Part shown: positions 53,222 through 63,983 of the stretch, piece after piece | Layout: the number at the start of each line of letters is the position of its first letter | Position numbering within the stretch: the stretch's first letter is position 1 | Source of the DNA: a bacterium | Lineage (GTDB): Bacteria > UBA8248 | Direction: 5' to 3' | Length of the DNA: 64,000 nt | Assembly: GCA_965207065.1 (NCBI GenBank) | Contig: OZ242260.1 | Location: 3,360,001 to 3,424,000, forward strand | Notes under the pieces: generated by a model | Seen by the model: the letters and a program-made list of their open reading frames with translations, nothing else | Databases searched by the model: none | What the model was told of the DNA's origin: nothing | Program-made: the position numbers and the translations under genes

Positions 53222-54259
53222 ATGAAATTCTCGATTTTTTACGTGATATGCCCCGAGGGGGACGAATCGGAAGCCGACGCCTACCAGAAGGTGATGGAGC
53301 AGTGCCAGGCGGCGGATGAACTCGGCTACCATTGCGCCTGGTTCGCAGAACACCATTTCTCAAAGGTGGGCATGTGCCCGGATCCCCTGCTCTGGTGTGC
53401 TGCGCTGGCGCAGAAGACGAAGAACATCCGCCTGGGAACGGCGATTTCCATCTTGCCCTTCCATAACCCGGTGCGCCTGGCCGAGCAGGCGGCGGTGGTC
53501 GATCTGCTGAGCGGCGGACGGCTCGAACTCGGCGTGGGCCGGGGTTCCCAGCCCAAGGAGTTCAAGACGTTCGGCGTAAAGCCGTCTGAGAGCAGAAAGC
53601 GGCTCGTCGAGGGAATGGAGATAATCTCGAGGCTACTGGCAGGCGAGCAGGTGACCTTCGAGGGCGAGTTCTATCAGTGTAAGAACGTTGAAATTTTCCC
53701 CAAACCCGTACAGAAGCCGAGGCCGCCGATCTGGCTGGCCGGCACGAGCCCCGAGACCTACACATACGCAGGGGAGAACGGCTTCAAGATCATGGCCTCG
53801 GCCGGCTTCAAGGGTCCCCAGGTCTACCGCGAGAAGATGAAGCTCTTTGAGGAAGCCGTGGCGGCGAGAGGGGGAGACCTCTCCGAGGTCGACTACACCA
53901 TGACGCATCGCTTCTACGTCTGTGAAGAAGGCGAGCAGACCGATTATCTCGAAAACTTCGAGCGGGGCCTTTCTTCTTATCTCGAATACCGCGCCAGGGT
54001 GAACGAGGTGGAGTTCACCGACGAGGAGGGCAGACACCTCCAGCGTAACTGGAGCTACAAGCTCGACGTTCGCGAATTCCTGAACGGCGGCGGCGTCATC
54101 GGTTCGGTGGAAGAAAACATTCAGGAGCTTTATCGTTTGAGGGATGATTTCGGTCTGAACCACGTGATTCTCGGCGTTTACGGCGACGGGATGAAGCACG
54201 AGGAGTCTCTCAAACTTCTGGAAAGATTCGCCAATGAGGTCGCGCCCGCGATGGCCTGA
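53222..54259 (+). CDS. LLM-class flavin-dependent oxidoreductase
   Basis: ADELGY...W.AEHHF, IRLGT....LP.HNPVRLAEQ....D.LS.GRL..G.GRG, PKPVQKP.PPIW, F..EV.P. Confidence 0.93.
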   Translation: MKFSIFYVICPEGDESEADAYQKVMEQCQAADELGYHCAWFAEHHFSKVGMCPDPLLWCAALAQKTKNIRLGTAISILPFHNPVRLAEQAAVVDLLSGGRLELGVGRGSQPKEFKTFGVKPSESRKRLVEGMEIISRLLAGEQVTFEGEFYQCKNVEIFPKPVQKPRPPIWLAGTSPETYTYAGENGFKIMASAGFKGPQVYREKMKLFEEAVAARGGDLSEVDYTMTHRFYVCEEGEQTDYLENFERGLSSYLEYRARVNEVEFTDEEGRHLQRNWSYKLDVREFLNGGGVIGSVEENIQELYRLRDDFGLNHVILGVYGDGMKHEESLKLLERFANEVAPAMA

Positions 54260-55170: not shown

Positions 55171-56031
55171 TTAGTCCGGCCTCCAGACCATGCCCCACCT
55201 CTGGATGGTCCATCTTTCGAGCGGGATGAGAAGCAGCCTGTCCGTGATCATCCACATGATGGCGATGACGAGCACGCCCAGGAACACTTCTTCAATCTTG
55301 TACTCGGCGGCGGAGACGAAGATCATGAAGCCCAGGCCGCTGTCGCCGCCTATCATCTCGGCTGCGATGAGTGCGCGCCAGCCGAAGCCCATGCTCATGC
55401 GCACCCCGGTGACGATGCTGGGCAGGGCGCCGGGAATATAAACCTGGGTGATGATGGCCCACCGCCCGCCGCCCATCGTCATGACGGAGTTCTCATACAC
55501 CCGAGGCACGCCCCGGACTCCCAGCAGCGTGTTGAAGAAGATGAGCCAGAACACGGTGTTCAGCAGGATGAAGAGCGTCGTGAGCCAGCCGGTTCCGAAC
55601 CAGACGATGGCGAGCGGCACCCAGGCGATGCCGGATATGGCGTTCGCGAACACGCCGATGGGCTCGAGCGCGTGGGCGAAGCGGCGGCTCATGCCCGCCA
55701 GCACGCCCAGGGCGATGCCCGATGGAATGCCGATGACGAGACTCAGGCCCACGCGGCCCAGACTCGAGAGAATGTGATTGGTGAACATGCACTCGTACTG
55801 CATCGAGAGCACCGCGCTCGCCCCTGCACAACCATCTGAAAGCGTGTAAATCGCCTCCCAGATGGTGCCGATGGGCGGGATGAAGACAGGCGGGAGCCAT
55901 TCCATCGAGGTGTTCATCTGCCAGAAGGCCAGCAGCACGACGAAGGGGATGCTCCCCAGCATGATTCTCCGCAGCCGCTGGCGGCCGAAGCGTTTTTGAA
56001 TGCCGATGGCGGCCGTCTGGAGTACACTCAT
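55171..56031 (-). CDS. ABC transporter permease (SsuC/TauC type)
   Basis: IAWVPLAIVWFG, PGALP.I.TG.R...G.GW..LIAAEMIG..SGLG; ATGA-coupled to the upstream permease. Confidence 0.9.
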   Translation of the reverse strand: MSVLQTAAIGIQKRFGRQRLRRIMLGSIPFVVLLAFWQMNTSMEWLPPVFIPPIGTIWEAIYTLSDGCAGASAVLSMQYECMFTNHILSSLGRVGLSLVIGIPSGIALGVLAGMSRRFAHALEPIGVFANAISGIAWVPLAIVWFGTGWLTTLFILLNTVFWLIFFNTLLGVRGVPRVYENSVMTMGGGRWAIITQVYIPGALPSIVTGVRMSMGFGWRALIAAEMIGGDSGLGFMIFVSAAEYKIEEVFLGVLVIAIMWMITDRLLLIPLERWTIQRWGMVWRPD

Positions 56032-56852
56032 CGTTGAACGAGCCCCCACCTTTGAATGGTGTCCGCCTCGATGGGACGCAGGGCGAAGCGGTCGATCATG
56101 ATCCAGATGACGCCGATCATCACCATGCCGAGGATGACCTGGGCGGTGAGGTCCGCATCCTGCGCGGTGAAGATCATCCACCCCAAGCCTCGCCTTCCGG
56201 CGAGCATCTCGCCCGCGATGACGGCCCGCCATGCGTAGCCGATGCCCAGCCGGGCACCTGTGGCGATGTGGGGCATGGCGCTTGGTATCAGTACGTCCTT
56301 TACGATTCTCAGGCGCGAAGCCCCGAGTGTTCTCAGGGCGTTCACCAGAATCATCGGGGTGCTGCGAACGCCCGTCAGGACGTTGAAGGCTATCGGGAAA
56401 AAGCAGGTGTATAGAATGACGACGAACACCGTCTTCTCGCTGTTGCCCCACCAGACGACGATGATGGGCAGGATGGCGATGCCCGATATGGACTGAAAGA
56501 AGTTCATGATGGGGTAGAACATGTCCGAGACGGTGCGGTTCAGCCCCAGGGCGATGCCGAACGGGATGCCGAGCAACAGGCCGATGGCGCTGCCGATGAC
56601 GAGCCGCCAGAGCGTCTGGCCGATGTAGTTGGGCAATAAACCCTTCCAGATGACGTCGGTAGAAGACAGGACGACCGAAAGGGGTGAGGGGAGGTAGCGG
56701 CTCGGGTTGGGGATGTTCTCGGAGATGACGCTCCACAAGACGAGAATCCCCGCGATGAGGAGCACGAGTTCAATGCCGCCTCCCTTGATGAAACTCATCC
56801 ATCGCCTCGAACGTGCTTTTCCTCTTGGAGCCGTCTCGCTACTCCTCGTCAT
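56028..56852 (-). CDS. ABC transporter permease (SsuC/TauC type)
   Basis: A.RTLGA, P.A.P.I.TG.RL..G..WR.VIA.EM.....GLG. Confidence 0.9.
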   Translation of the reverse strand: MTRSSETAPRGKARSRRWMSFIKGGGIELVLLIAGILVLWSVISENIPNPSRYLPSPLSVVLSSTDVIWKGLLPNYIGQTLWRLVIGSAIGLLLGIPFGIALGLNRTVSDMFYPIMNFFQSISGIAILPIIVVWWGNSEKTVFVVILYTCFFPIAFNVLTGVRSTPMILVNALRTLGASRLRIVKDVLIPSAMPHIATGARLGIGYAWRAVIAGEMLAGRRGLGWMIFTAQDADLTAQVILGMVMIGVIWIMIDRFALRPIEADTIQRWGLVQR

Positions 56853-57627
56853 CGAACACCTCCTCGCGCACGAGGCGTAGGATTTCATCGCGCGGGTCGG
56901 TGTAGGTTTTCTCGGAGAGCAGGTCCTTCCAGATGCGATTCTCGCGCGGAACGTTAATCTTGACGGTGGCCTTGAGCTTGCCCGGACGGCGGGAGAAGAT
57001 GAAGCACCTGTCACCCAGGAACGCGGCCTCATCCACGTTGTGCGTGATGAAGAGAATGGTCTTGCGCGTCGCGATGGCGATGCGGTTCAGCTCTTCCTGC
57101 AGGGTGATTCTCGTCTGCGCGTCCACGGCGGCGAAGGGCTCGTCCATCAGCATCACCACCGGGTTCGCGCACAGCGTCCGCGCGAGGGCGCAGCGTTGTT
57201 TCATGCCGCCCGAGAGCTCGTGCGGATAGCGATCCTCAAAGCCCGAGAGGCCGACCAGGTCGACGAACTCCTGCACCCTTTGCTCCCGCTCGCTCCTGGC
57301 GATGCCCTGAATCTCCAGGCCGTGGCCGATGTTTCTCGCCACGGTGCGCCAGGGGAGAATGGCGTGTTCCTGAAACACCACCCCCCTGTCCGGGCCCGGC
57401 CCCTGCACCTCCCTGCCGTCCACCTGTACGCTGCCCTCGGTGTGGGGGAGAAGCCCCGCGAGGATGTTCAAGAGCGTGGTCTTGCCGCAGCCGCTCGGGC
57501 CGACGACGGCGGAGAATTCGCCGTCCTCCACCGAGAGGCTCACCTGATCGAGCGCGTGAACGTCCTCTCCCGTGTATTCGTCCGGATAGTGGTGCGATAG
57601 TCTGTCGACGACCAGTTTCGCAGGCAT
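56839..57627 (-). CDS. ABC transporter ATP-binding protein (SsuB/TauB type)
   Basis: GPSGCGKTT, VFQ...LPW.TV, LSGGMKQR, MDEPFAA.DAQTR, ITH...EA. Confidence 0.95.
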   Translation of the reverse strand: MPAKLVVDRLSHHYPDEYTGEDVHALDQVSLSVEDGEFSAVVGPSGCGKTTLLNILAGLLPHTEGSVQVDGREVQGPGPDRGVVFQEHAILPWRTVARNIGHGLEIQGIARSEREQRVQEFVDLVGLSGFEDRYPHELSGGMKQRCALARTLCANPVVMLMDEPFAAVDAQTRITLQEELNRIAIATRKTILFITHNVDEAAFLGDRCFIFSRRPGKLKATVKINVPRENRIWKDLLSEKTYTDPRDEILRLVREEVFDDEE

Positions 57628-57701: not shown

Positions 57702-58718
57702 CTATTTGAGGTCCTTGAACCACTCGGGATGTTCCTTCATGGTCCGGTTGATGAACTGGAAGTCGAAGTATTTCTTGGGGTCGTAGGGGCGCTTCATCTT
57801 CTTCTGGGCGATGAGCTGTTTCACCGAGAATTTGAAGGCCTTGAGCGTGTTCTCGCCCAGACGCGTGTCATACGTCCACCACTTGATGGTGCGCTTGATG
57901 AGGGCGGCGTCCATACCGCGCACGTAGCGCGCGCCGATTTTCGAAATCTCGTCGATGTTCTTGGGGTCGCGCACATAAGCGGCCGCCTCGGACATGCCGT
58001 TCACGAACGCCTGGGTCGCCTTCTTGTCCTTGTAGACGCGCTCGGGCACGCCGTGCATGCCCGCGCAGAAGCATACGTAGTCGCCGCCGCGCGACACGAT
58101 GGAGGAACCCTTCACCTTGTCGACCATGCGGGTGAGGTAGGGCTCCCAAGCCACCATGGCGTCCACGCCGCCCGAATCGAACAGCGAGACGAGGCTCGGC
58201 GGACGCACGTTGATTCGGCGCACGCCGCCCACGCCGATGCCGTTTCTCTCGAGCAGGGTGCGGAGATAGAGGTCGCCGGTGGAGCCGAAGGTCGCGCCGA
58301 TTTTCTTGCCTTTCAAGTCCTTGATGCTCTTGACGCCCGTTCCGGGGCGCACGGCGATGCCCACCATCTCATCCGTGGTGGATTTCTTGTAGGAGCCGCC
58401 GACGTAGCCCACGACGCCGCGCACCTTGATGCCGCGCTCCAGCGCCGCCGGCAGGTTGGTGAAAGCGGCGGGCGCGAAGTCGATCTGACCGGCCTTGAGC
58501 GATTTGGTGAGCTGGGCGCCCGTGTTGCGCACGACGACTTTCCCGTCGAGCCCGTTCTTGGCGAAGAAACCCTTGTCGACGCCGACGAAGACTATCATGC
58601 CGCCGGTGTTGCTGGCCGCGCCGAGCTTGAGCGTGGGCGCCGCCGAGGCGAGTCCCGCCGCCGAGAGCGCATAGACGAGCGCGACGGCCAGAATGATGCG
58701 AACAGAATAGCTTTTCAT
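57702..58718 (-). CDS. ABC transporter substrate-binding protein (SsuA/TauA/NMT1 type)
   Basis: Signal peptide; GFF.K.GL, L.AG.ID, IKDLKGKKI....GS, DA...WEPY; GGAGG RBS. Confidence 0.9.
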   Translation of the reverse strand: MKSYSVRIILAVALVYALSAAGLASAAPTLKLGAASNTGGMIVFVGVDKGFFAKNGLDGKVVVRNTGAQLTKSLKAGQIDFAPAAFTNLPAALERGIKVRGVVGYVGGSYKKSTTDEMVGIAVRPGTGVKSIKDLKGKKIGATFGSTGDLYLRTLLERNGIGVGGVRRINVRPPSLVSLFDSGGVDAMVAWEPYLTRMVDKVKGSSIVSRGGDYVCFCAGMHGVPERVYKDKKATQAFVNGMSEAAAYVRDPKNIDEISKIGARYVRGMDAALIKRTIKWWTYDTRLGENTLKAFKFSVKQLIAQKKMKRPYDPKKYFDFQFINRTMKEHPEWFKDLK

Positions 58719-58861: not shown

Positions 58862-59698
58862 CTATTGCGCCTGCACGATGGGTGTATCCTCCCGGTTCCC
58901 CCATTCCTTCCAGGAACTCATGTAGTTTTTCACCTTGGGATAATCCAGGAGCCTGAGAGCGAAGTAACCGTGCGCCGCACGGTAGCCCGTCTGTCAGTAG
59001 GCTGTAACTTCTTTCTCGGGCGTGACCCCGATGGCCTCGAATTGGGCGCGAAGCTCATCCGCGGGCTTCATCTCGCCATCGGGCGTCAGGTGCTGGAGCC
59101 ACTCCTGCCAGACCGCGCCAGGGATGATTCCGTCCCGTTTGGCCCTCTTGCCCCGTCCTTCCCACTCCTCAATCGAGCGGGTGTCGAGGAGCATGTGGTT
59201 GTCGTCCTCGATGGCCGCCAGTACGTCCTCACGCGTGGCGAGGCGGTGCGGCTCGAACGCCATCTGGAAAGAAGCGGCTTTGGGCACCTCGGCGTCGCGC
59301 GTCGTCTCGAAGCCCGCCCGCTCCCATGCGCCGTAGCCGCCGTCCAGCACGTGGACGTCCTTGTGGCCGAAAAGCTCCAGCATCCAGAAGCCGCGCACGC
59401 TCGTGTTGCCGACGAAATCGTCGTAGAAGACGATGGTGTTCTCGAACGATACCCCCCGGTTTCCCAGCAGGAACGCCCACATGGAGAAAAAATTCTTAAG
59501 CGGCGCCTCGCCCGAGTCGTCGCTGTTCACGCCGTAGACGTCGAAATGCCGCGCGCCGGGGATATGGCCCATCGTGTAGCGCTCGCCGGGGCGCGTGTCG
59601 ATGATTCTTAAATTCGGGTCGTCCATGCGCTCTTTTAGTTGTTGGGCCGACCAGAGCAGGTCGGGATTCGCATAGGCTTTCGGGTTATCGCTCGACAT
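58862..59698 (-). CDS. Tandem-domain rhodanese/sulfurtransferase, probable selenoprotein (U235 at the catalytic position), 278 aa
   Basis: ORF track stops at TGA 58994-58996 (...EVTAY*). Readthrough gives [45 protein letters not shown], stop TAG 58862-58864, completing the fold. Upstream motifs GHIPGA, LDGG..AW, G.IPGA. Confidence 0.92.
58967..58983 (-). promoter_or_regulatory. Candidate bacterial SECIS hairpin for the sulfurtransferase
   Basis: mRNA reads UGA + 10 nt + ACCGUGC-GGC-GCACGGU; apical loop starts with G, 17 nt after the UGA. Confidence 0.7.
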
Positions 59699-59714
59699 GG
59701 TGTTCTCCTTCGGA

Positions 59715-60461
59715 CTAATCCGTCCAGAAGCCGCCGTTCACGTCCACAGCTTCGCCGTTGATGTGGGCTGCTTCCTCGCTTGAGAGGAACAAGACGGTGT
59801 GCCAAACGTCTTCCGGCGTGGTGAGCCTGCCCATGGGATGGGCGTTCGCGGCGTTCACGAGCATCTCGGGCGGTGACTGGAAGTGAAGGCCCGTATCCGC
59901 GGGTCCCGGCTGTATGGTGTTTATCGTCACGCCCGTTTTGGCGAGTTCGCGCGCGAGGTTGAACGTCATGGCGAGCAGGCCCGCCTTGGCGGCGGAGTAG
60001 GTGAGGTTCGGGCCGATGCCACCCATCTTCCCAGCGATGGACGCGAAGCTGACGATGCGCCCCGTTCCCGAGGCCTTGAGCGCCTCGATGGTCTCCTGGA
60101 TGCAGAAATAGGGAGCCAGCAGGTTCACGTTCAGGACGACGTTCCAGTCCTCTTCTTCGAGTTCCAATGGCGGGCGAATCGGCATGTAGCCGGCCACGTT
60201 CGCCAGCACGTCGCAGCCGCCCAGCCATTCGAGAGCCGCGCGCATGGTGGTGCGGATGGCGTCCACGTCGGCCAGATCGCAGGGGAGCTTGAAGAGCTGA
60301 TCGGATGGGCCTTCGATCGCGTCGAAAGCCGCGCCTTCCCTGTCGGTGGCGAAAACCCTGGCGCCGGCCTCGATGTATCCCTGCAGAATACGGCTTCCCA
60401 TCGCGCCCGCCGCGCCCGTGAGGATGACCTTGCGGCCCTGAAAATCAAAACGAATGGGCAT
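59715..60461 (-). CDS. SDR family oxidoreductase
   Basis: TGAAGAMG, N.AG, ASIAG, YSAAK, HPMGR, DVNGG. Confidence 0.92.
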   Translation of the reverse strand: MPIRFDFQGRKVILTGAAGAMGSRILQGYIEAGARVFATDREGAAFDAIEGPSDQLFKLPCDLADVDAIRTTMRAALEWLGGCDVLANVAGYMPIRPPLELEEEDWNVVLNVNLLAPYFCIQETIEALKASGTGRIVSFASIAGKMGGIGPNLTYSAAKAGLLAMTFNLARELAKTGVTINTIQPGPADTGLHFQSPPEMLVNAANAHPMGRLTTPEDVWHTVLFLSSEEAAHINGEAVDVNGGFWTD

Positions 60462-60811
60462 ATTGCGTTACTCCAGTCCTGGTGTTTGGGGATGAACGGA
60501 ATGTCCGTCTTGAACTTCTCGTAACGGCGGATGATACACCACAAAACGGAGAGGAGAAAGTGGAAGGCCGCCATTTCCTGTAATGCCGAAAGGGGCGCTC
60601 ATGCACCGATTTTTTGGGGTTTTATTTTGCTCCTTGAGTTGTTATGATAGTTTCATCGAATGCAAGCGAAACACCATCGAATTCTATCGGGTCCCGAAGG
60701 GATTGCGATGTGCTCGAAGCAGCATACCTATCCAATTATCATGTAAAGGATTGAGAATATAAAAACGCCCTGCGGTATGCGTTTCGATGCCGCGAACGAG
60801 TGGAGGTTGTG

Positions 60812-63097
60812 ATGGCTGAACTCTCATACATCGGAAAAAGCGTGCCTCGCGTCGACGGGCCGGAAAAGGTGACGGGCCGGGCCATGTTCACCCTGGACCT
60901 TCAGTTGCCCAAGATGCTCCACGGGAGGCTGCTGGGGAGTCCCCTGCCGCACGCGCGAATCAAGAACATCGATACCAGCCGCGCCGAGAGACTTCCCGGC
61001 GTCAAACTCGTGATGACGGCCAAGGACATCCCGGAGGGGGTGGAGTGGGGCGTCGTACCCGTTTGCTACGATCAGCGTCCCCTCGCCTCGGACAAGGTGC
61101 GTCACGTGGGCGATTCGGTGGCGGCCGTCATCGCGATATCTGAAGATATCGCGAAAGAAGCGCTCGATTTGATCGACGTCGACTACGAGGATCTTCCCGC
61201 CGTCTTCGATCCGCGCGAGGCGATGCAAGAGGGCGCCCCTGTCATCCATGACAGGTACCCGGACAACATCGCTTTCACCAAGCACATGGAATTCGGCGAC
61301 GTGGACCGCATGTTCGACGAAGCGCACCATGTGAGCGAGTTGGCCACTTCCTCCTCACGCCAGATGCACGGCTCTTTGGAGGCGCACGTCTCCATCGCCG
61401 AGTGGTCGCAGAAGGGCGACGTAACCGTCTACAACTCCTCGCAATGCCCGAGTCTTTCGAGCCAGTATTTCTCGAAACTGCTGAAGATTCCGGAAGCCCA
61501 GATTCGTGTTGTCACAAATTACGTGGGCGGGGGTTTCGGCGGAAAGGCGACGAGCAAGTTCAACATCGATTTCCTCTCCATCATCGCGGCGAAAAAGCTG
61601 AACCTCCCCGTGAAATTCTACTACACGCGGGAAGAGGAGTTTCTCCTCGGCACCCACCGGACGAAGCAGTTCCACGTCTGGCGCATCGCCACCGACAAGG
61701 ACGGCATGCTGCTCGCGCGCGACACCCAGATGGTGGTGGAAAACGGCGGCTATTCGGATTACAGCCCGGCTGTCGGCGGCATCACGGCGCACATGGGCGG
61801 GAGCATCTACAACTACAAGGCCTATCGCCACCACGCCGACGTCGTCTGCACGAACGTGCCGCCCGGCGGCGCGATGCGCGGAATCGGCAACGCCGGCTAT
61901 GCGTTCGGTTCGGAACTCGCCATGGAGAAACACGCCGAAGAAATCGGCATGGACCCGGCGGAGTTTCGCATCAAGAATTTCGTGAGGAAGGGCGACACCA
62001 CCATCATCGGGGCCAAGATTACCAGTTGCGGCGTTTCCGAATGTGTGGAAGAGGCGGTCAAGCGCGTGCCCTGGCGCGAGAAACAGCCGAGCAGCAACGG
62101 GAAAAAGCGCGGCTTCGGGCTGGCGGCGGCGGTCCATTTCACCGGCGCGCGCGCGATGGGGCCGGAGACGGCGGGCGCGTTCATCAAGATGAACAAGGAC
62201 GGCACCGTGCAGTTGCTCTCGGGCACCATCGAGATGGGCAACGGCTCGGACACCACGCTCGCGCAGATTTGCGCCGAAGCAATTGGCATACGCGTGGAGG
62301 ACGTGCGGATCATCAACGGCGATACCGCGGTGAATCCCTACGGATGGGGCGTGCGCGGAAGCCGCACGACGACCATCGACGGCGAGGCCACGCGCCTGGC
62401 GTCGGTCCAGGCGAAGAACATGCTCTTCAAGGGCGCGGCGGAACTGCTCGAGTGCGACCCGAACGACCTCGACGCGCGCGATGGTAAAATTTACGTCTCC
62501 AGCTCGCCCGAGCGGCAGGTGACCCACAGCGAAGCCTACATGAAGTTATATGAAAAAGAGGGCAGTGAGGCCGTCTACACGGCGTCTTCTTACGACTCGC
62601 CGAGCGAGACGCCCGACCCCGTGACGGGTTACGGTAACTGGTCCGCGGCCTACGCCTATGGCGCCAAGGTGGCGGAGGTGGAAGTGGACACCGAAACCGG
62701 CGCGTTCGAGGTGTTGCGCGTCATCAGCACGAACGACTGCGGAACCATCGTGAACCCGGCCGGCGCGCAGGGCCAGTTGGACGGCGGCGCGGTCATGGGC
62801 GTGGGCTACGCCATGATGGAGGATTTCGAGTGCGAAGACGGCCAGCCGGTGAACGCGAACTGGCTCGACTATAAACTGCCTACGACACAGGATGTGCCCG
62901 AGCTCGAATCCGTGCTCATCGAGACGGAAAATCCCTCGGGGCCTTTTGGCGCGAAAGGGTTGGGCGAGATGGCGCAACTGGGCACCTCGGCAGCAATCGG
63001 CAACGCGATCTATGACGCTGTGGGCGTGCGGATCACGTCGCTGCCGATTACGCCGGAAAAGGTGCTGGCCGCGTTGAACGAGAAAAACGGCGAATAA
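60812..63097 (+). CDS. Xanthine-dehydrogenase-family molybdopterin-binding large subunit
   Basis: KVTGRA.F..D, SP.PHARI, GGGFGGK, AMRGIG, EMG.G..T...Q, GSR.T, GPFGAKGLGE; GGAGG RBS. Confidence 0.95.
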   Translation: MAELSYIGKSVPRVDGPEKVTGRAMFTLDLQLPKMLHGRLLGSPLPHARIKNIDTSRAERLPGVKLVMTAKDIPEGVEWGVVPVCYDQRPLASDKVRHVGDSVAAVIAISEDIAKEALDLIDVDYEDLPAVFDPREAMQEGAPVIHDRYPDNIAFTKHMEFGDVDRMFDEAHHVSELATSSSRQMHGSLEAHVSIAEWSQKGDVTVYNSSQCPSLSSQYFSKLLKIPEAQIRVVTNYVGGGFGGKATSKFNIDFLSIIAAKKLNLPVKFYYTREEEFLLGTHRTKQFHVWRIATDKDGMLLARDTQMVVENGGYSDYSPAVGGITAHMGGSIYNYKAYRHHADVVCTNVPPGGAMRGIGNAGYAFGSELAMEKHAEEIGMDPAEFRIKNFVRKGDTTIIGAKITSCGVSECVEEAVKRVPWREKQPSSNGKKRGFGLAAAVHFTGARAMGPETAGAFIKMNKDGTVQLLSGTIEMGNGSDTTLAQICAEAIGIRVEDVRIINGDTAVNPYGWGVRGSRTTTIDGEATRLASVQAKNMLFKGAAELLECDPNDLDARDGKIYVSSSPERQVTHSEAYMKLYEKEGSEAVYTASSYDSPSETPDPVTGYGNWSAAYAYGAKVAEVEVDTETGAFEVLRVISTNDCGTIVNPAGAQGQLDGGAVMGVGYAMMEDFECEDGQPVNANWLDYKLPTTQDVPELESVLIETENPSGPFGAKGLGEMAQLGTSAAIGNAIYDAVGVRITSLPITPEKVLAALNEKNGE

Positions 63098-63116
63098 CGA
63101 GGAGAGGGGAGAAAAA

Positions 63117-63983
63117 ATGGCTTTTCGGCATTTACCCGCGAACAGCGCGGAGGAAACGCTCGCCGCCATGAAGGAGCATGGCGACGACGGGAAAGTGTTC
63201 GCCGGCGGCGTCGCCCTCTCGATTCTCATGAAATCGGGCGTGTACGAACCAGACGTGTTGATCGACATCGCTGGAGCGAACGATCTGGATTTCATCGAAG
63301 AGGCTGAAAACGGCGGCGTCCGAATCGGGGCGAAGACGGTGCACCGCAAGATCGAGACTTCCCCCCTCGTAAAGGAGCGTTTCCCGCTGCTCGCGGAAAT
63401 TTTTCACAACGTGGCTACGATACGCATCCGGAACCAGGGGACCGTAGGCGGCAACCTGTGCTTTGCGGAACCGGCCTCGGATCCGCCTGGCGCCTTTCTG
63501 GCCCTCGAGGCTCGGATGAACACCAGGAAGGCAGACGGGACGGAACGCATGATTCCCGCAACGGAGTTCTGGACGGGATACTACGAATGCGCCCTGGATG
63601 AGGACGAGTTGCTGTGCTCCATCGAGGTCGAACCATTGCCCGATGGTTTCCGGACGGCGTGTACGCGCTTCACCACGCGCTCGAAAGAGGACAAGCCCTG
63701 CGTATCCGTTTCCACCGCGGTGCTTACCGGAGAAGACGGCAAGACGGCAAAAGAGGTGAGAATCGGTCTGGGCGGCGTGGAAGCCGTATTCAGACGCCTC
63801 ACAGCGGTGGAAGATGGCCTGCAGGGCAAGGAACTCAACCAGGAGAACATCGACGCCGTGCTCGCTGAGGCGCTCGATGACCTCGACCCTTTGACCGACA
63901 TCCGCGCGAGCGGCGACTACAGACGGCAGGTGACGCCCGTCCTGGTCCGCAGAACCATCCTGAAGGCGTTAGGCGCGTCCTGA
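63117..63983 (+). CDS. Xanthine-dehydrogenase-family FAD-binding medium subunit
   Basis: AGG..L, IGA, IRN.GT.GGNL....PASD, DIRAS.DYR. Confidence 0.93.
   Translation: MAFRHLPANSAEETLAAMKEHGDDGKVFAGGVALSILMKSGVYEPDVLIDIAGANDLDFIEEAENGGVRIGAKTVHRKIETSPLVKERFPLLAEIFHNVATIRIRNQGTVGGNLCFAEPASDPPGAFLALEARMNTRKADGTERMIPATEFWTGYYECALDEDELLCSIEVEPLPDGFRTACTRFTTRSKEDKPCVSVSTAVLTGEDGKTAKEVRIGLGGVEAVFRRLTAVEDGLQGKELNQENIDAVLAEALDDLDPLTDIRASGDYRRQVTPVLVRRTILKALGAS

Follow-up and report, generated by a model that had tools for sequence, protein, structure and literature searches.

A gene on the minus strand of the window, by which we mean the whole 64,000-nucleotide stretch of bacterial DNA analysed here, very probably encodes a 278-residue tandem-domain rhodanese whose catalytic residue is a selenocysteine (Sec), predicted to be inserted at UGA codon 235 through an RNA hairpin that follows this codon; we put the probability of this reading at about 95%. 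A preliminary description of the same DNA had proposed such a Sec enzyme, and its proposal is supported by the Sec machinery of the genome, the pairing of Sec with Cys among orthologs, the selection acting on the protein tail, and the constraint on the hairpin. The recoding signals, the machinery, the Sec/Cys pairing and the purifying selection on the tail were all observed directly.

The gene (58862..59698, minus strand) comprises 278 codons and a TAG stop (58862..58864, minus strand, from the translation), and was delimited by translation with TGA read as U, by Pfam PF00581, and by comparison with solved relatives. A Shine-Dalgarno-like AAGGAG (59705..59710, minus strand), read from the sequence and putative in this role, lies 6 nt before the ATG. 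The sole in-frame stop before the natural end is, as had been noticed earlier, the TGA at 58994 (58994..58996, minus strand), codon 235 of 278, which alignments place at the catalytic-Cys position of the C-terminal rhodanese domain and which we read as Sec. Translation also bore out that read-through restores the active-site loop, Y-U-Q-T-G-Y-R-A, together with the C-terminal motif, with 43 codons remaining between UGA-235 and UAG; the U-Q-T-G at the Sec site fits the U-x-x-G pattern. Two rhodanese stretches were found by PF00581 in the read-through protein (E 1.1e-34), i.e. a tandem-domain architecture, with an N-terminal domain (residues 17-127; 59318..59650, minus strand) that corresponds to the best Pfam stretch and is presumed non-catalytic, and a C-terminal catalytic domain (about residues 155-272; 58883..59236, minus strand) whose approximate limits come from alignments with 1uar and 1e0c and from the second Pfam stretch. 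These two are also the best solved relatives over nearly the full length (1uar, 4e-42; 1e0c, 3e-41), and U235 falls on the catalytic Cys of both, which in 1e0c belongs to the loop C-Q-T-H-H-R-S. In the N-terminal domain, the site equivalent to the Sec of the C-terminal domain is occupied by Asp93, as judged by eye from the sequence.

An open reading frame call with translation table 11 ends this gene at 234 aa, and all public proteins of its orthologs have the same 234-aa length, i.e. are truncated, so that the truncation by gene callers expected in the preliminary description is what both the call and the public records contain. The orthologous proteins are publicly named 'sulfurtransferase' or 'rhodanese-like domain-containing protein' of Nitrospinota bacteria. 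The gene matters mainly for annotation, since these records describe an enzyme without its active site, which becomes complete again once the UGA is taken as Sec. The gene had been called a hidden selenoprotein, which holds for the public gene calls, since they truncate it, but not for the selenoprotein family, which has been catalogued since 2005. As regards a more specific name, the SseA model (NCBIfam NF008557, the 3-mercaptopyruvate sulfurtransferase equivalog) matches the protein over its full length at 143.6 bits against a cut-off of 250; identity with SseA was rejected on this score, the two being homologous only, and the rhodanese should therefore not be filed as SseA.

The genome, a single contig of 4.48 Mb, encodes what is needed to decode UGA as Sec. 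The genes selA (579 bits) and selB (386 bits) lie side by side and score above their curated cut-offs, as does selD (334 bits), which carries one in-frame TGA itself; a tRNA-Sec scores 75.9 bits, above the Rfam gathering score, and ARAGORN likewise calls a tRNA-SeC with anticodon TCA. The search for selA, selB, selC and selD that had been suggested earlier therefore ended with a complete Sec machinery. The selD gene, located at C1:543537-544499 (minus strand) of the same genome, is a selenoprotein gene in its own right, with a G-G-U-G-S-K motif. Elsewhere in the genome, TGA is the closing stop of 1673 of the 3471 open frames of at least 300 codons, and it has therefore not been reassigned.

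Using the read-through protein, a six-frame search over 51 genomes of the same phylum gave a match at E <=1e-40 in 48, and each full-length ortholog of 73-95% identity carried exactly one TGA; one further match ends at a contig end before the UGA site. Of the 38 ortholog genes that were extracted, 32 are of the Sec type and six are more distant (49-70% identity). All 32 Sec-type orthologs, which span four genera and reach down to 73% identity, have U at the aligned site, followed by a conserved tail of 43-52 codons, and the six distant ones all have TGC or TGT there. Among the 148 rows of a broader alignment, every one of the 78 Cys-type rows has Cys in the UGA column, which, together with 1uar and 1e0c, upholds the earlier statement that tandem-domain sulfurtransferases have Cys at this position. 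The alignment of homologs that had been suggested for position 235 thus returned TGA in 32/32 and TGC/TGT in 6/6 orthologs, and the opposite pattern that had been envisaged, close relatives with TGC/TGT and no conserved hairpin, was not found, as 32/32 keep both the TGA and the hairpin.

These observations bear on the possibility that the UGA is decoded other than as Sec, by reassignment or by near-cognate suppression, e.g. as Trp or Cys, or that termination dominates, with the full-length protein made in minor amounts only. Sec insertion is generally known to compete with termination at UGA, which lends this possibility some substance. On the other hand, TGA closes nearly half of the long frames counted above and also serves as the regular terminator of 11 of the 38 ortholog genes extracted, the UGA forms a classical Sec/Cys pair with the Cys of all 78 aligned Cys-type homologs, and a complete Sec system coexists with a conserved hairpin at a SelB-type distance. 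We consider decoding other than as Sec, or dominant termination, very improbable, and Sec insertion remains our preferred reading of this codon.

In bacteria, the SECIS element read by SelB (the E. coli fdhF type, with its bSECISearch consensus) is a hairpin directly 3' of the UGA within the coding sequence, and the apical loop, about 20 nt away from the UGA, has G as its first base. In the rhodanese gene, codons 239-244 (Y-R-A-A-H-G) form a hairpin (58967..58983, minus strand), assigned from folds, synonymous constraint, pair counts and the geometry of the selD hairpin. Its stem consists of seven perfect pairs between 58983..58977 and 58973..58967 and encloses a GGC loop (58976..58974), and a 10-nt spacer separates it from the UGA, so the 7-bp hairpin with a G-initiated loop reported previously is present exactly as described. 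Two other selenoprotein hairpins can be set beside it, that of selD in the same genome, which has the same geometry (a stem from +10, 7 bp including G-U pairs, and a GGA loop), and that of an AhpD-like selenoprotein gene, with an 8-bp stem and a GGUC loop. No match to the region was returned by an Rfam scan with E up to 10, and the hairpin is therefore described by no curated RNA family.

Taken alone, the hairpin is weak evidence, because its single-sequence fold is unremarkable (z = -1.54, 13 of 200 shuffles folding as well) and because comparable hairpins, defined as at least seven perfect pairs with a loop of 3-8 nt starting with G at an offset of 8-14 nt, occur by chance at a frequency of about 0.17%, following 342 of 200,000 randomly chosen positions of the genome and 210 of 132,635 TGA triplets. 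Folding energy was consequently dropped as evidence, and the weight of the hairpin comes from its conservation. It is found at +10 in 32/32 Sec orthologs, within a zone of suppressed synonymous change that covers codons 233-244 around the UGA and the hairpin (58967..59002, minus strand, from 32 orthologs). Across the 32 orthologs, no other window of the gene has a mean synonymous entropy as low as that of codons 233-243, at 0.087 bits compared with 0.763 for the gene as a whole, and A233, Y234, Q236, G238, Y239, A241, A242 and H243 are each written with a single codon in 32/32, whereas the flanking codons outside the zone use two to six synonymous codons. In the Cys forms the stem is broken (6/6) and the synonymous sites there vary; the R-A-A-H-G of the Sec forms corresponds to R-S-A-H-A in their active-site loop. 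Within the phylum, no covariation of the hairpin was found, as it is near-invariant and the rare changes weaken the stem (C-A in two orthologs, A-C in three).

The same gene and hairpin recur in other phyla. A search pattern in which the UGA, the codons for Gln and Gly and the inner five pairs of the stem were fixed, and in which both outer pairs and the first base of the loop could vary, matched at least 122 stretches in one-genome-per-species contigs, and 79 of the 80 loci fetched encode the same Sec-rhodanese, with the same hairpin apex after the UGA. These 79 loci belong mostly to Dehalococcoidia/SAR202 and Binatia, with a few from other groups. The remaining locus (L110, on a Sphaerimonospora chromosome) was rejected as a chance pattern match in a GC-rich actinomycete frame without homology to the query. 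The Sec-rhodanese with this apex is accordingly very common in marine Dehalococcoidia/SAR202 and Binatia, and a full-text literature search for SAR202 together with selenoproteins found no paper joining the two. One Dehalococcoidia chromosome carries two tandem Sec-rhodanese genes about 940 nt apart (L066 and L067), each with its own UGA and hairpin.

Across 91 distinct sequences, 95.9% of the cells in the stem are paired, and since the inner five pairs were fixed by the pattern, information in this set comes solely from both outer pairs and from the base that opens the loop. The outer pair is U-A in 47, A-U in 18 and G-C in 2 sequences, and the second outer pair is C-G in 85, A-U in 2 and G-C in 2. 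None of 500 shuffles reached the covariation score observed for these two pairs, 0.101, against 0.081 for a control slid by +1, and the compensatory changes behind it trace to few lineages. All 87 distinct sequences have G as the first base of the loop, a synonymous site that the pattern left free.

A hairpin built from active-site codons also invites the explanation that the stretch after the UGA is constrained as protein only, and not as RNA, with Sec insertion directed by some other signal. The stretch does encode the catalytic loop, which is conserved in the Cys forms too. The constraint, though, falls on synonymous third positions, with the Gly, Ala, Ala, His and Tyr codons fixed in 32/32 orthologs, and protein selection therefore does not explain it; Cys forms with an equivalent loop vary freely there and have no stem, and G is invariably the first loop base in the 87 sequences just mentioned. 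Moreover, synonymous variation among the 32 orthologs drops nowhere else in the gene, except at the ragged end of the alignment. A purely protein-level constraint is thus very improbable in our view, and the evidence strongly supports the hairpin with its G-containing apical loop 3' of the UGA as a putative conserved SECIS element, on the strength of comparative sequence data.

Selection was also estimated on the protein beyond the recoded codon. For codons 246-274, which lie past the hairpin, dN/dS was 0.02-0.37 in nine pairs of orthologs (dS 0.67-2.7), and for the part upstream of the UGA it was 0.09-0.19 (dS 0.4-2.7). The tail is therefore translated, which excludes a pseudogene or a sequencing error. 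It follows that a recent nonsense mutation or sequencing error, leaving a pseudogene or a truncated 234-residue protein, is barely conceivable as the origin of the TGA: gene callers and public records do give 234-aa products and the energy of the single-sequence hairpin is unremarkable, but the TGA is retained in 32/32 orthologs from four genera down to 73% identity, 29 codons past the hairpin evolve at dN/dS 0.02-0.37, and the truncated product would be without the whole active-site loop.

With Sec at position 235 as the preferred reading, we infer the insertion of Sec, the Se-S chemistry and the substrates as follows. A ribosome arriving at UGA-235 would meet the hairpin 10 nt downstream, which would recruit SelB carrying Sec-tRNA(Sec); Sec would then be inserted at 235, and translation would continue for 43 codons to the UAG. 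In the folded enzyme, the selenolate within the six-residue loop U-Q-T-G-Y-R would take a sulfane sulfur from a donor and form an Se-S intermediate, presumably the counterpart of the persulfide of Cys-rhodaneses, and this sulfur would be passed on to an acceptor. Such a double displacement, as in Cys-rhodaneses, is the most likely course by analogy with them, and the N-terminal domain would take no catalytic part. Because the hairpin is built from the codons of the active-site loop (Y-R-A-A-H-G), RNA signal and catalytic loop each restrict the changes open to the other, and the gene, in which the same codons specify both, is well suited as a clear example for teaching.

How this lineage acquired its Sec was addressed with trees of Sec and Cys forms. 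The present Sec clade was nested among Cys forms, with two state changes, both in a FastTree analysis of the 148 rows, a set without L110, without loci whose frames are truncated or contain X, and without sequences sharing at least 88% identity with one that was retained, and in a quick IQ-TREE tree of 67 hand-picked rows from which the hairpin-coded columns had been removed. Both of these free trees placed it far from the Dehalococcoidia/Binatia Sec clade. In an AU test, however, a single Sec clade was not rejected (p-AU 0.653) and constraining the tree even raised its log-likelihood by 6.85; for this reason an independent, convergent origin of Sec in this lineage is not claimed, and one origin of Sec plus hairpin is the simpler reading. 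The nearest Cys form examined is about four bases away from the Sec form over the UGA and the stem. As the loop codons (R-[S/A]-A-H) are only a few base changes from a SelB hairpin, the family may favour a switch from Cys to Sec; that it is predisposed in this way, and that this lineage came to use the same hairpin separately from the Dehalococcoidia/Binatia Sec forms, is a speculative scenario that we regard as unlikely.

The genes surrounding the Sec-rhodanese were compared with Pfam and NCBIfam models. A short-chain dehydrogenase (SDR) gene (59715..60461, minus strand; Pfam adh_short_C2, 7e-46) lies 16 nt upstream of the rhodanese start, and an SDR gene adjoins the rhodanese in 32/32 Sec loci, in two Cys loci, and in four further, near-identical loci from the pattern scan; the two genes probably belong to the same operon. 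Directly downstream is a gene for an SsuA/NMT1-like ABC substrate-binding protein (57702..58715, minus strand; Pfam NMT1_2, 3e-21), which scores 111.5 bits against the NCBIfam SsuA_fam cut-off of 163.5, and which adjoins the rhodanese in 25 loci. It is followed by genes for an ATPase and two permeases of the nitrate/sulfonate/taurine ABC type (55171..57627, minus strand), with scores below the curated cut-offs. The two permease reading frames overlap as listed, and the start of the 521-aa frame is therefore probably much later. Among the best matches of the ATPase and permeases are SaoA and SaoP, also below cut-off, and a luciferase-like monooxygenase gene (53222-54259, plus strand) lies near the transporter genes. 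On the other side, divergent from the SDR/Sec-rhodanese operon, are genes for a molybdenum subunit of the xanthine dehydrogenase family and an FAD-binding subunit (60800-63983, plus strand); the best NCBIfam match of the molybdenum subunit is the 4-hydroxybenzoyl-CoA reductase alpha subunit (618.7 bits against a cut-off of 994.55), and the start of its gene stands beside the operon in 22 related loci. As none of the neighbours of the rhodanese reached a curated NCBIfam cut-off, the context is a loose functional hint only, and it may point to organosulfur handling.

Several known systems allow the Sec-rhodanese to be placed. It is homologous over its full length to RhdA of Azotobacter vinelandii (1e0c) and to the Thermus thermophilus rhodanese (1uar), and the loop aligns residue for residue; with 1e0c it has the Q-T-x-x-R loop in common, carrying Sec in place of Cys and Q-T-G-Y-R-A in place of Q-T-H-H-R-S. 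Its hairpin has the layout of the bacterial SECIS element, but is very short, with 7 bp and a 3-nt loop, and has no bulged U. The single-domain 'rhodanese_LYCAU' family (NF041203), with its CxU motif, also consists of Sec rhodaneses, but architecture and Sec position differ, and the present protein is therefore not a member; the NF041203 model gave only a partial match, to the N-terminal domain, at 34.4 bits against a cut-off of 115, and membership was rejected.

The closest counterpart is a family that has been documented repeatedly. The 2005 study of the Sargasso Sea selenoproteome (PMC1088965) lists a 'Rhodanese-related sulfurtransferase' with three sequences, assigned to COG2897, among the new families, and in two sequences of its supplement, both with the motif Y-U-Q-x-G-x-R-A-A-H, the TGA is immediately followed by the same hairpin apex. 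A 'Sulfurtransferase COG2897' with three Sec and four Cys members appears in the 2007 account of the Olavius symbionts (PMC1976440), and the rhodanese-related family recurs in the GOS table of a 2008 paper (PMC2398784) and in the table of a 2022 review (PMC9312934); a 2026 review (PMC13188914) lists the family as 'form 4', with the motif UxxG. According to the BSepDB paper (PMC13326102), the ten organisms richest in selenoproteins include metagenome-assembled genomes named Nitrospinota, and the part of its supplement that was examined has no rhodanese, sulfurtransferase, PF00581 or COG2897 entry.

Set against these records, the rhodanese described here is very probably a fresh member of a selenoprotein family known since 2005, and nothing new in kind. 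With the COG2897/SseA-type Sec family it has in common the Sec at the position of the catalytic Cys and the U-x-x-G motif, and with the two sequences in the PMC1088965 supplement both the motif and a five-pair apex with a GGC loop, a match judged by eye. Within the COG2897 Sec family, this lineage has its own loop variant, and in comparison with the Sec forms of Dehalococcoidia and Binatia, its rhodanese is closer to the Cys forms of its own phylum (65-70% identity).
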